NCBI GenBank assembly: GCA_951406725.2
Contig: OX597821.1
Location: 37,634,001-37,698,000 of the forward strand
Direction of reading: 5' to 3'
Length of the DNA: 64,000 bases
DNA from: Octopus vulgaris
Taxonomy: Eukaryota
Part shown: positions 4,480-49,274 of the stretch, one piece after another
How positions within the stretch are numbered: the first letter of the stretch is position 1
How the letters are laid out: every line of letters begins with the position of its first letter
The notes under the pieces: generated by a model
Told to the model about the DNA's origin: nothing
The model's database searches: none
The model's input: the letters and a program-made list of their open reading frames with translations, nothing else
Made by a program: the position numbers and the translations under genes

Positions 4480-5474
4480 GTATATTGCAAACCTTGTAAC
4501 AGACGTCCATTTTGATTCAGTCACTAATGACGTCACTGGTTCGATGAAATTGCAAGATATATATTTCAGCTGGTATTGAACACGCTTTCTCCCAATGAAT
4601 ACTTTCAGTTTATTGACTGCGATAAAACCATATCATATTTAGGTCGCCATAATGCACCCCTCCCCCATCGGGGCCTTAATGTCTGGCGGATGCAGATGGC
4701 ATTCAGTGCTCCTATGCGATCCTATCTATCTGCGTAGCAACGTTAAGATAGCTCCTCACCTCATGATGGTAGTGGAGACATATTCCGTCTTGCTTAAAAT
4801 ACATTTTCTGTTCATATTCCGACTTCTGTCGAAAGTGTGGCATGATGGATTGTTGTATATAATTCAAAAATACAGTACCAGTTACAAGGCTGTCAAAGAG
4901 AAATCCTTCAGTTAAGTGCAAAAGCTATCAGTCTGACCTTCTCCCCCACTCGTAATGTGCAGCTTCTTGGTTGTCCAGTAACTGCACTTGTGACAATATT
5001 AGGTATTGCAGCATAAACGCCATCACTTCTAGGAATTTGGGTTTAAAAACGCTGCCTCTACTGCCCAGTTTTTCCTGAGTCACATAATTCAATTCTCCAA
5101 TCGGGATCATTTCTATTGAGGACGTAGACAAATAGAATAAAGTATTCGATGAGGTACTTCAAAATGTGGTAGTGCTCGATTTTGGAAACCTCTTTCGCCA
5201 GTTATTTACTGAGCAGGTTTTTCTTGAAGATTGATGTAAGGCCACTTTTGTCTCATTGGTATCTTGGATGTTTGCAATCTATTGTGGCGACGTTTGTGGG
5301 GAAAAAGAAAAGATCATACTCTCCAGCTACGTCTTTCCACTTTCACACCAGAATAATTTTCCTTTGCTCAAAGTTTAGTCACATCTCAGCCATTAAAAGT
5401 AGTTGTTTCCGAAACCGAAATATTTTGATTTAAAGACCGAGAAAATATATGTATATTTCTTGAGACAAGGAGAT

Positions 5475-25569: not shown

Positions 25570-27099
25570 GACTACTGAGCCCTGCTTCTTGCTTATTTTT
25601 ATAGTTCTTTAATGCTCTTTACCATACATAGTTTTGCTCTTATTATTGACAGCGTTTCCCAAAACACAAGAAGCACATATTTTTGGTATATCCAAACTGC
25701 AGTTCTAGGAGGAGGGAAATCACCTTTAAAACACCACAAATATTCCACCTGTAAACTGAGTAATTAACACCTTTCAGAAAGAGTTCCATCGGTTCATAAG
25801 TTTCTTCCACATCGACAACATGACCCACAGGAATGGAAGGCTTTTCATTACCATTATGTGACAACACAGTTTTGAGGCTAACCTTATTCGAGTCTATAAA
25901 CAATCTCCATTCGTTAGCCACATGCACCTGTCCTAATTTTTGCATGAGTGCATTAATGTCTGTACAGAAACAATCATTATTATCTTGCTCGAAAAAGACA
26001 GATAAGCCTTTATGGCGAGAACGGAAAATGGAAATTTTTGTACCTTGCTGTAGGAGATTCCTTTGTTGTAGTTTGGATCCCAAAATTTCTGCCCCCTCCT
26101 TTGACAATGCTAGGCCTCTTACTAAATCGTTCAAACCTTCTTGATTAAACTTGCCTGGCTCATTTTTCTTAGAATCACCTACTTACTCTTCGTCGCTAAG
26201 AGAGTCCGGGGATTCATCATGCGACGTGTCAAGATTTTCAAGTGAAGCATGTGAAAAGGGAACTGGGACAGGGTTCTCGAAGTAATGTGGGACCGGTTTT
26301 AGAGCCGACTTACAATCTGCATACACAATTTTTGATTTGGTTTTCTTTGAGAAACCACTAATATTAATCATGCAACAGTAACAATCAGAGACATTATTGG
26401 TTGGCTCACGCCATACCATTGTTGCAGCAAAAAGTATTCCCTTCCGTTTCCCATTCAGTCACTGTGTAAGCCTTGAGTAACGCATATTGCAACATTTGTG
26501 AGGTGCTCACCTTGTGTCCTGGTCCCCAACTTTACACTCGAAATAATATTTATAGGCAGTTTTAATTTGATGGCAATATTCCTCCGCTGGTCACGTGGAG
26601 CAAATTTTCCACAGACATAACAAAAGTTGTCTGGGTGATTCACATAACCTCTCCTATTAATGATCTAACACAATGAACACAGTTAAAACAGTAATCACGG
26701 AGAGAGAGAGAGAGAGGGACACACACACACACACACACACACATATACCACACGTGATGGCAGAACAAATGACACTAAGAGTTACCAAGAACAAACTGTT
26801 GTATTTGGCATTGTACACAATACGTCAGCGCCATCTATTGCTAAACTAAATAATGAACTTTCTCATGGTTTGTTTCATTGCTGTTATTTCTTTAATTTTG
26901 AATTAAGACCGCTTTCATTTTAGCAAATTTTATAATACGGCTTTATCTAGCCGAAAGTATAGTTATAATCTTGCGCATGCACATAACTCAAAATCCTGAT
27001 GTGATAGAATAATTCTGAGTGCGGATTCGGAATCAGCATCCTCGATTTAGTCTAAAACACATGCTTTTACTTCAGTAGCAAAATCTTTGTTGTCCAGTG
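25570..27099 (-). mobile_element. Chapaev3-like (CMC) DNA transposon relic, 5' part with transposase pseudogene
   Basis: ORF pieces NHPDNFCYVCG, GDQD..APHKCC, VWREP...DCYCC...PVPH, NDLVRGLALSK...WRLFIDSNKVSLKTVLSHNGN...W.ICG.LKV...GYTK.MCFLC. 5' terminus CACTGGACAACAAAG at 27099, followed on the plus strand by TTA. Family name from recalled motifs. Confidence 0.85.
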
Positions 27100-45865: not shown

Positions 45866-47896
45866 AGAAAGAGAAAGAAAGAGAAAGAAAGAGAGAGATA
45901 GATAGAAGTAAGAGTGAAGTCAAGATCTTTATGAGCTACATATAATAAGACCTATAATATGTCTTGTTCTTATCTATCCCTGAAGAAAGCAAAAGAAAAG
46001 TTGATCACCGTATAAAATGAGACGAACCAAATTTCAGTCAGAAGCCTTTGACAGACCCATGCTTATGATAAAGAAGAACTCACGAGGACAGCGTCTGGCA
46101 ATTTACTACGATACATACATGCGCACATACATGTATGCATGTGTGTATACATATATATATATATAAACTGTATAATTGTATTGAGTAATTCTTCAGTTTA
46201 TGCCTTTTGTATTCTTTCATCGTGGGACTAAATAATGCTGTTCACATGAGCATTGGTTGAGCACTTTACCTCGCAAAGACTAATTATGATGCACCCTGTG
46301 GAAATTTGTTGCTCTAAATACTGAACAAAATTAACTCTAACAGTTTTATTTGAAAACTGAAATGTAAATAATGTTTGCCATTGTTGTTGCGATGTTAAAG
46401 AAAGTAAACCATTTCAATAACTGACGGAAATAAATTTGTTTCAAACTAAACTTCAAGAACTGTAAACATTTCTTTAGATGTAACAAAAACATGGTTTTGT
46501 GCCTAAAGTAGAAGTGAGAGTACAACACACGATATCGTTTTAGTGAAAGACAGAAAGAAAAAATGATTGTCAACGAAACTAGGATGTTAAGTTTATATTT
46601 AGAATATGTTTAGCAGACACAGTAGTAAAGACCTAGCAGCGGCGGCGGCAGCAGCAGCAGCGTGCTGGGTGATTTCGCTTGAAGGGGAAAAGTAGGTAAA
46701 CGAAGTCGATGTATGGAAGAAGTTTCTGTAGACCCTTTCTGTTGTTGTATTAGTCATCTGAAGAAGTGGGACACTTGGTGTTCTTAAACCTACGTATGCT
46801 ACTAGCCTTACCAGACTTGAATGCTTGAAGCATTTAGAGCAAAAGCAAAAAATCCCCAGCGGTAGTAACGGCAGCGAGACGAAATATAGCTTTTGCTACT
46901 ATTTTTATTCAACTTTGTCGACTGCGCCAATTAATTTTCTTTTATTGAAATAATCTATATAATTTATATAAAGTTTGGAGACATGCTTAGACTTGTAAAC
47001 TACGATAAGAATAACACTGGTCAACAAAGAATTTGTCCAAAGGGGAAGAATACTTATATCTTATATGTTTTTGCATGCAGAATTCTAAAACAATGTCAAA
47101 TTAATCTGTTCACCCAAAGTTTTTCTGTTTTACGATATCCCACCACCCCAGATCCTGTTACGTTGCTAAATCTCAGTTAAGCTGTTGAAATGTGAAGCTA
47201 ACGGTTTAAGAAATATTCCTAGTTAAATTTTTTTGGAACAGAATTAACCTAGTGAAATCATAAATCCAGCTATCTGAATTAATGAATTAATTAATATATT
47301 TAAATTAAATGAATATATATGAAAAATATATGAATTGAAAATATCTAAAAATACTAACACACAGCAGCACAGAAAAATATTTAACACACACAGAAAAATT
47401 AAAACAAAGTACGTGGGTGAAAAGAATTTCGTGATGTGAAGAATTAAATGTGAAAAATCAACATAGAACAACGTGTGGTACAGACAACAGTGAGGTGAAC
47501 CACAACACAGCGTGCGGTTGTCATGGTAACGCTGTCTATTGATTGGCTAAAATTACCCATATTTCCCAACTTTAATTTCAAATAACACCAGGTTCTTTAA
47601 TTTACGAAATAAAGCAATCAGTTGATCGTAACCAAAATTCAGAGTTGCATCGATACACCAAAACTAAAAGCAATCTGAGCGAAATTAAAGGGGGTGTGTG
47701 TTTTATTTTGCGAATAAAAAGACTAGATTCTTTCGTTTTTACTGACAGGTGCACAGATAAATAATTATCTGTATTATGTAGCCCAGAGGGAATAATAGTA
47801 GTTAACGATTTCTGAATAAAAGTAGATTGTTTTGTAAACTGTTATAGTATATGGAATCCAGAAGTGCACAGCAGTCGTAATATATATATATATATA

Positions 47897-48103
47897 TTTA
47901 CTCTTTTACTCTTTTACTTGTTTCAGTCATTTGACTGCGGCCATGCTGGAGCACCGCCTTCAGTCGAGCAAATCGACCCCGGGACTTATTCTTTGTAAGC
48001 CCAGTACTTATTCTATCGGTCTCTTTTGCCGAACCGCTAAGTGACAGTGACGTAAACACACCAGCATCGGTTGTCAGGCAATGCTAGGGGGACAAACACA
48101 GAC

Positions 48104-48136
<33 letters not shown>

Positions 48137-48308
48137 CATATATACGACAGGCTTCTTTCAGTTTCCGTCTACCAAATCCACTCACAAGGCATTGGTCGGC
48201 CCGGGGCTATAGCAGAAGACACTTGCCCAAGATGCCACGCAGTGGGACTGAACCCGGAACCATGTGGTTGGTTAGCAAGCTACTTACCACACAGCCACTC
48301 CTGCGCCT
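47897..48308 (-). mobile_element. tRNA-derived SINE family A, full length
   Basis: Minus-strand head GGCGCAGGAGTGGCTGTGTGG (A box)...GGTTCAGTCCC (B box), CTTGGGCAAG core, internal (TA)/(TG) tract, tail ...GACTGAAACAAGTAAAAGAGT. Several copies in the window. Confidence 0.92.
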
Positions 48309-48530
48309 ATATATATATATATATATATATATAATGATAAATATCAGAGTGAGTTATATACAGTAGCGGTAACACATCGTGACGTATATTTGCCATCTCA
48401 ATATGGCTACCCCTAAGGGTGGATGCTACTGTAGTTTTTAGCCCCAGGAGGACACATTCCTCCAGCTGGCCATAGACACACTTTCTGTGTCCTGTCAGTA
48501 TTTGCAAAGGGAAGTCATCCTTCCCGTCTT

Positions 48531-48600
48531 CAACTTATGATACACACGGACTCGAGTTTCGAGGTATTGACCTCTCGTCAGCGTGTGACAATCATAGTTG
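48531..48600 (-). ncRNA. Type I hammerhead ribozyme, intact core, minimal palindromic helix III
   Basis: Minus strand reads CACACG-CUGACGA-GAGGU(CAAU)ACCUC-GAAAC-UCGA-GUC^CGUGUG. Helix I is 6 bp and extended by CAACUAUGAU/AUCAUAAGUUG. Helix II is 5 bp. Predicted cleavage between 48549 and 48548. Confidence 0.95.
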
Positions 48601-48858
48601 TCGGCGAGAATTAGATTTCCTTCACAAATACTTATACTTTTTCCAGCGTCCACTGTCGCTGATATTGAAAAAGTGAAATCAAACAATGATAAATATCAGA
48701 GTGAGTTATATACAGTAGCGGTAACACATCGTGACGTATATTTGCCATCTCAATATGGCTACCCCTAAGGGTGGATGCTACTGTAGTTTTTAGCCCCAGG
48801 AGGACACATTCCTCCAGCTGGCCATAGACACACTTTCTGTGTCCTGTCAGTATTTGCA

Positions 48859-48910
48859 AACTCGAGTTTCGAGGTATTGACCTCTCGTCAGCGTGTGACA
48901 ATCATAGTTG
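48859..48910 (-). ncRNA. Second hammerhead copy, lacking the 3' strand of helix I
   Basis: Identical CACACG-CUGACGA-helix II-GAAACUCGAG, but a 42-bp deletion next to the cleavage triplet removes CGUGUGUAUCAUAAGUUG. Confidence 0.85.
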
Positions 48911-49238
48911 GAAGTCACATACTTATACTTTTTCCAGCGTCCACTGTCGCTGATATTGAAAAAGTGAAATCAAACAATGATAAATATCAGAGTGAGTTAT
49001 ATACAGTAGCGGAACACATCCCATCTCAATATGGCTACCCCTAAGGGTGGATGCTACTGTAGTTTTTAGCTCTTCACATTCCTCCAGCTGGCCATAGACA
49101 CACTTTCTGTGTCCTGTCAGTATTTGCAAAGGGAAGTCATCCTTCCCGTCTTCAGCTGGAGGAATGTGTCCTCCTGGGGCTAAAAACTACAGTAGCATCC
49201 ACCCTTAGGGGTAGCCATATTGAGATGGCAAATATACG

Positions 49239-49274
<36 letters not shown>

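Follow-up and report, generated by a model that had tools for sequence, protein, structure and literature searches.

The element in the window

The window analyzed here is a stretch of 64,000 nucleotides of Octopus vulgaris DNA, and the element of interest is a 910-bp insertion between two (TA)n tracts, one at 48308 to 48333 on the left and one at 49243 to 49271 on the right, which bears out the first-pass annotation of an array embedded in (TA)n. Two abundant interspersed repeats adjoin it, at 48146 to 48307 (minus strand, with a tRNA-like head) and at 47890 to 48100, and both may be octopod SINE-type repeats. Farther away, a 179-aa open frame at 25643 to 26182 (minus strand) presumably resembles a DNA-transposon fragment.

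Unit positions are numbered from the 5′ end of the cleavage product, with window position 48548 as unit position 1. The 352-bp period is exact over 48334 to 48860 (527 bp, 1.5 units), a region that on the minus strand contains one intact 352-bp unit at 48334 to 48685 and, from the period comparison, an exact half unit, positions 41 to 215, at 48686 to 48860. This long arm ends on the left at what is called site B below, in a 46-nt "tail" made of unit positions 171 to 216 (48333 to 48378, minus strand), a stretch that is strongly conserved even in a family 61% identical. An intact type I hammerhead lies at 48543 to 48587 (minus strand), with the cut between 48549 and 48548. A second hammerhead at 48860 to 48910 (minus strand) is broken by deletion of its cleavage site and the stem I 3′ strand, and the remnant of the motif at 48860 to 48897 is without C17 and that strand because unit positions 351 to 352 and 1 to 40 are missing. 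Besides this loss, the innermost unit at 48911 to 49154 (minus strand) is scrambled by four deletions and two short inserts, and has its 5′ end at unit position 17. There the long arm is joined via a 2-nt microhomology to an inverted second arm at 49153 to 49242 (plus strand), which carries unit positions 81 to 170 and ends at site A, so that the copy has B on its left and A on its right.

The first-pass annotation described the locus as head-to-tail 352-bp monomers. That holds exactly for 48334 to 48860, but the whole is not a clean array, being 1.5 intact units and 1 intact ribozyme with a scrambled unit and an inverted arm as the remainder. The unit is noncoding, as annotated, with no ORF of at least 100 aa over 48333 to 49242, and the local GC is 0.40. 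With a single intact hammerhead, monomer release by 2 cuts is impossible from this copy, and it probably gives rise to no circles.

The minus-strand hammerhead has the type I core, CUGACGA and GAAA, with a stem I of 6 bp plus a long extension, a stem II of 5 bp with a CAAU loop, and a stem III of 2 bp. It had been annotated as flawless, and the core and the cut site are as described, but helix III has just those 2 bp, and the active fold, at −10.8 kcal/mol, is higher in energy than a shifted, core-blocking fold at −16.9 kcal/mol. This lowest-energy fold masks the core through a shift of stem I; since folding models omit tertiary contacts, it is a hint only. The Rfam search proposed by the first-pass annotation aligns RF00163 (Hammerhead_1) to 48543 to 48587 over the full model length with E = 4.2 × 10−4, but its 32.2 bits fall below the gathering score of 34. 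The helix III pairs lie inside a palindrome, the 8-nt ACUCGAGU in this family versus ACCGGU in the 359-bp sister family described below. Canonical metazoan hammerhead motifs have been described as cleaving as dimers, and by analogy the palindromes in both families would fit cleavage as a dimer. Folded as a circle, the unit reaches −115.7 kcal/mol, versus −82.4 ± 5.6 in 60 shuffles (z = −5.9).

A dispersed family of short arrays

Genome-wide counts were taken in genome G000 (2.8 Gb, 227 contigs). The 45-nt hammerhead motif has 407 exact copies on many contigs, versus 0 for the reversed control, which indicates that the motif is not due to chance; a second motif near the 3′ end of the unit has 723 exact copies, also with 0 for its reversed control. 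The dispersed tandem copies that the first-pass annotation anticipated thus exist, as a family of short arrays with units of 352 to 353 bp spread over many contigs. At least 1 full unit lies between 2 cleavage sites in 41/78 sampled insertions. With ten subfamily positions excluded, 294 of 63,357 unit sites depart from the majority, and by this divergence of about 0.5% the family is young. One pair of loci, L032 and L037 (G000:C1:21142268 and C1:22182571), is a single insertion inside an inverted segmental duplication that is 98% identical over 2.7 kb.

The family has relatives. A sister family, also young, has a unit of 359 bp, shares about 61% identity, and gives 37 exact hammerhead matches (loci at G000:C1:20002278-20004542, L202 to L208, and L241 to L252). 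An older family is about 83% identical to the 352-bp unit over positions 1 to 216. Two much older relatives of the unit, at L178:165-351 (about 65% identity) and L129:27-181, indicate that its lineage is long-lived in this genome. The first-pass annotation had held its reading to depend on other copies with a conserved core and covarying helices, and these are found across the three families. In 15 sequences, pairing holds for 94.5% of cells, and 13 of the 52 pairs have changed on both sides, a level reached by 0 of 500 shuffles, with slid controls far lower; as the three families are related, this covariation amounts to few independent events.

A loose hammerhead-core pattern has 4067 matches in G000 versus 390 in the reversed control, in many distinct motif families. 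In 21 other loci with a hammerhead pattern (L181 to L201), there is no similarity to the unit except at L189, which is a family member. The unit contains no Pol III A-box/B-box consensus, and a TATA-like word occurs once per strand. Contigs from 4 of 24 listed runs, which we guess to be RNA, include one 383-nt Logan contig that loops round the unit, and tandem DNA gives the same; Logan contigs cannot show ends, strand, level, or circularity, and they are kept out of evidence.

Among the features that define retrozymes, we find tandem units of 352 to 353 bp, inside the 150 to 450 bp taken as the range for the class, GC below 50%, one type I hammerhead per unit, and no coding capacity. The arrays consist of units alone with no ORF attached, and by that makeup they show no LTR/PBS/PPT layout. 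In the available passages of Cervera and de la Peña (2020, PMC7229834), metazoan non-LTR retrozymes have units of 350 to 390 bp in Mytilus and of 330/350 bp in axolotl, and Penelope-like elements (PLEs) are proposed as their helpers. The octopus family shares with them a noncoding tandem unit of about 350 bp carrying one type I hammerhead, a short palindromic helix III, a stable circular fold, and the presence of PLEs in the genome. The octopus arrays differ in being short, scattered through the genome, and for the most part placed in (TA)n, with fixed ends, tails, and inversions that those passages do not describe. On the features compared, assignment of the 352-bp family to the metazoan non-LTR retrozymes is supported, and the first-pass reading of a retrozyme family gains from the dispersed short arrays, the conserved covarying core, the lack of an attached ORF, and the PLE marks of the insertions. 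As far as the literature searched goes, the family is a previously undescribed non-LTR retrozyme: that search, mostly open-access and without Repbase, found no cephalopod description of such retrozymes, and the supplements to the NAR 2020 paper and to a 2026 preprint could list one.

Insertion ends and the copied template

For the analysis of ends, 82 complete segments were retained from 130 loci, after exclusion of segments that touch a locus edge, are shorter than 60 bp, are below 93% identity, or repeat the same sequence; L104, a 46-bp stump ending at A, was among those removed. The sample is biased to long, intact copies, except for the set from contig C1. Most outward-facing 3′ ends cluster at two sites separated by 46 nt, with 66/127 at site A (unit positions 167 to 173) and 48/127 at site B (212 to 220), or 114/127 together. 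Head-to-head insertions with 2 arms number 45, and 36 of them combine A with B (one being a segmental duplicate), 9 have one atypical end, and none are A+A or B+B. The one-armed segments, 37 in all, mostly end at A (26), with 7 at B and 4 at other positions. Insertions on C1 picked by the motif near the 3′ end are A+B in 15/28, and in the sister family all 7 two-armed insertions are A+B. Flanks are TA-rich on both sides of 64 of the 82 segments, on one side of 11, and on neither side of 7, and TSD-like repeats of about 10 to 13 bp flank 3 of 8 non-TA segments examined (L002, L073, and L155). The 5′ ends, by contrast with the fixed 3′ ends, are scattered, and of the 45 arm 5′ ends on C1, none lies at unit positions 1 to 3.

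PLE insertions have been described (PMC3846280; 10.1101/2021.04.23.441226) as partial tandems with an inverted 5′-truncated pLTR arm and a tail of 30 to 40 bp at one end. For the anole element PAc in vitro, PMC11167929 places the tail between 2 internal start sites of reverse transcription, reports cutting of both strands of AT-rich DNA, and predicts a dimer. The octopus insertions are like these in their partial tandems, inverted 5′-truncated arm, one-end tail, AT-rich or microsatellite targets, and 2 internal starts; they differ in having no ORF, in a 352-nt repeat that is the whole element and is copied through several rounds, in a tail of 46 nt versus 30 to 40 bp, and in a hammerhead that is canonical rather than minimal. 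In sequence terms, the fixed ends, the A+B pairing, and the mostly (TA)n sites match the PLE "tail" signature. Ordinary satellite DNA, spread by recombination or by extrachromosomal DNA circles with no RNA step, would also consist of tandem units, and circular DNA templates also yield homogeneous arrays. Satellite spreading is made extremely improbable by 3′ ends fixed at two sites while 5′ ends scatter, by the A+B ends of the head-to-head inversions, by the TSD-like repeats, and by conservation of structure on a single strand.

Inversion junctions have an overlap of 1 to 8 nt in 32/44 cases. An inverted arm could come from the first cDNA folding back and priming its own copy, or from priming on an antisense template, instead of from a second priming on RNA. 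Self-priming has been proposed for rotifer PLEs, and the short arm fits within the long arm in 33/44 insertions. Also, in L042 and L073, a variant absent from the outer unit is common to the mirror-image inner units, which points to fold-back synthesis or arm-to-arm conversion in some cases. The short arm does not fit in the other 11/44, however, and offsets between the 5′ ends of the 2 arms spread from −158 to +165 with only 12/35 within 44 nt, so two priming events are favored; strict A+B pairing would also demand an additional cutting rule of a fold-back process. We give the fold-back origin a minor but real share of our belief, as an unlikely general route.

Variants inside the insertions bear on what the template was. 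Here, ten subfamily sites were excluded, positions had to be covered at least twice per insertion, and four segments, being segmental duplicates or fragments, were left out; a variant counts as "private" relative to the roughly 80 insertions sampled out of several hundred. There are 19 variants carried by all units of an insertion, in 15 insertions, with 8 spanning both arms and 10 present in three or more units, while 9 others are partial and 170 are in a single unit. The window element itself has one variant in 4/4 segments, including the inverted arm, and another in 3/3. Judged from these sequences, the all-unit rare variants would be explained most simply by repeated copying of one ligated monomer.

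Instead, a few homogeneous master arrays might supply a linear multimeric transcript that stays uncleaved and serves the same PLE enzyme as template, with the hammerhead and any circle as by-products. HHR cleavage is dispensable for PAc in vitro, where HHR mutants left insertion unaffected (PMC11167929), and passage through the cleavage site, exact in 166/170 cases, fits a linear transcript as well. As about 80 of several hundred insertions were sampled, unsampled homogeneous multimeric masters could account for the all-unit variants. Single-unit variants common to different insertions form 22 pairs versus 17.9 ± 4.2 expected by recurrence, which leaves no clear trace of linear array-to-array copying, although 2 of the 22 match in rank and haplotype as such copying predicts. 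Against linear copying, 5′ truncation only shortens arrays and preserves the differences between units, yet arrays reach six internal units; also, there are 13 haplotypes at the ten common sites with within-insertion disagreement in only 20/600 site checks, beside the 15 insertions with all-unit rare variants. We hold the linear template to be possible but doubtful, and prefer a ligated monomer.

Penelope-like elements and a proposed route of movement

The insertions are dispersed and have signs of retrotransposition, PLEs are present in the same genome, and the PLE footprint of the insertions points to a PLE as the helper. A search of G000 gave many matches, with 6136 GIY-YIG candidates, of which 150 were scored. 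An intact PLE family (L161:930-6172 in G000:C16:20834000-20842000, and L162 to L170) has an upstream ORF and a 781-aa ORF (for instance L161:2745-5087) with RVT_1 and GIY-YIG domains and a cysteine linker before the nuclease, a linker that has been described for Neptune and Nematis PLEs. It has a 456-bp pLTR and a 40-nt tail, 10 copies have a median identity of 99.1%, and its ends, also in (TA)n, are at a pair of sites some 40 nt apart, with A+B pairing in L166, L170, and L253. From these sequences, the L161-type PLE is probably young and active, and its ORF is a candidate helper enzyme. A degenerate hammerhead-like motif was read by eye near L161:6065-6105. At L173:1821-4983 lies a second PLE family with a 574-aa open frame and 97.9% identity to L174; it carries an inverted arm and is tailed at one end, and a CCGA-core hammerhead variant was read by eye near 4800 to 4850.

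The first-pass annotation had set against its own reading the case of a unit that is simply the pLTR of an autonomous Penelope element, with the arrays as its stumps. The preprint by Li, Clavereau, and Pollet (2026, 10.64898/2026.07.22.740005) gives such a reading some weight, vertebrate retrozymes often being pLTR homologs there, and at L160 one insertion sits 265 bp behind a PLE-derived reading frame. That frame is decayed, with stops, next to a retrozyme copy that is 99% like the family, and L160 was rejected as an autonomous partner. L173 was rejected as a PLE with the unit as its pLTR, the 81% relative there lying some 600 bp past the PLE end, within a (TA)n tract of its own; both loci are read as retrozyme copies that landed next to or inside PLEs. 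C2:202403002/202406252, with motifs 3.25 kb apart, is the only same-strand pair about 3 kb apart among the 100 matches listed, and it is a satellite duplication with no RT ORF. PLE protein matches occur in 4/94 loci examined, and each unit is preceded upstream by a further unit, by (TA)n, or by unrelated DNA. When the unit was compared by BLAST with 50 PLE loci, and a three-family profile with 71 PLE and hammerhead loci, only retrozyme copies and no pLTR came up; Rfam gave no match at its gathering score in 8 PLE loci. Among the PLE families compared, the unit is the pLTR of none and has no significant sequence link to any pLTR, the L161-type one included, and we consider a pLTR of an unsampled autonomous PLE very unlikely.

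The same preprint concludes, from co-occurrence and pLTR homology, that vertebrate retrozymes are nonautonomous PLE derivatives, and 8 of 9 dimers tested in it did not cleave, which counts against the cleavage step proposed below. The octopus analysis likewise arrives at a PLE as helper; its basis differs, being the insertion footprint with no pLTR homology found, whereas the main text of the preprint covers 35 species with no mollusc named and no analysis of insertion ends.

We consider it likely that the element in the window is a single insertion of a young nonautonomous non-LTR retrozyme that was moved in trans by a PLE reverse transcriptase with a GIY-YIG endonuclease. By analogy to known retrozymes, loci with at least 2 units would be transcribed, the hammerheads would cut, most likely as dimers via the palindromic helix III, and a 352-nt monomer would be ligated into a circle. 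A PLE protein, itself deduced from the pattern of ends, would then cut (TA)n or other AT-rich DNA, and reverse transcription would start inside the RNA at A (170 to 171) or B (about 216 to 219). The enzyme would then circle one monomer template several times, as we are somewhat inclined to believe, which would account for internal units, six at most, that carry identical private variants. In about half of insertions, both target ends may be primed, one at A and the other at B, with the cDNAs joined head to head via microhomology, in some cases leaving skips and templated inserts like those of the window copy; for this step, our judgment is evenly divided. Taken as a whole, each insertion might preserve the trace of a single RNA circle, made by the ribozyme and read by a PLE reverse transcriptase dimer, with A and B priming on opposite ends, both rolling round the same circle, and the cDNAs then joined; we put this forward tentatively, as a picture that falls somewhat short of probable.

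Retrozymes are already known, including in a mollusc, and PLE mobilization was argued in the 2026 preprint, while the manner of movement is still a proposal. What the octopus family adds is an unusually clean record of insertion, its youth making ends, junctions, and private variants readable. The footprint is strictly of PLE type, and the variant pattern is what copying a single monomer over and over would produce. With its 352-nt template, on which the starts are mapped, and a 781-aa RT-endonuclease that is encoded in the same genome and 99% conserved, the family makes a compact test system, which would allow tests of rolling-circle reverse transcription and of the origin of PLE inversions and tails. 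If the twin-primed circle is true, the insertions would supply evidence from a genome that a viroid-like circular RNA undergoes rolling-circle retrotransposition in an animal, and the one-sided PLE tail would be explained.
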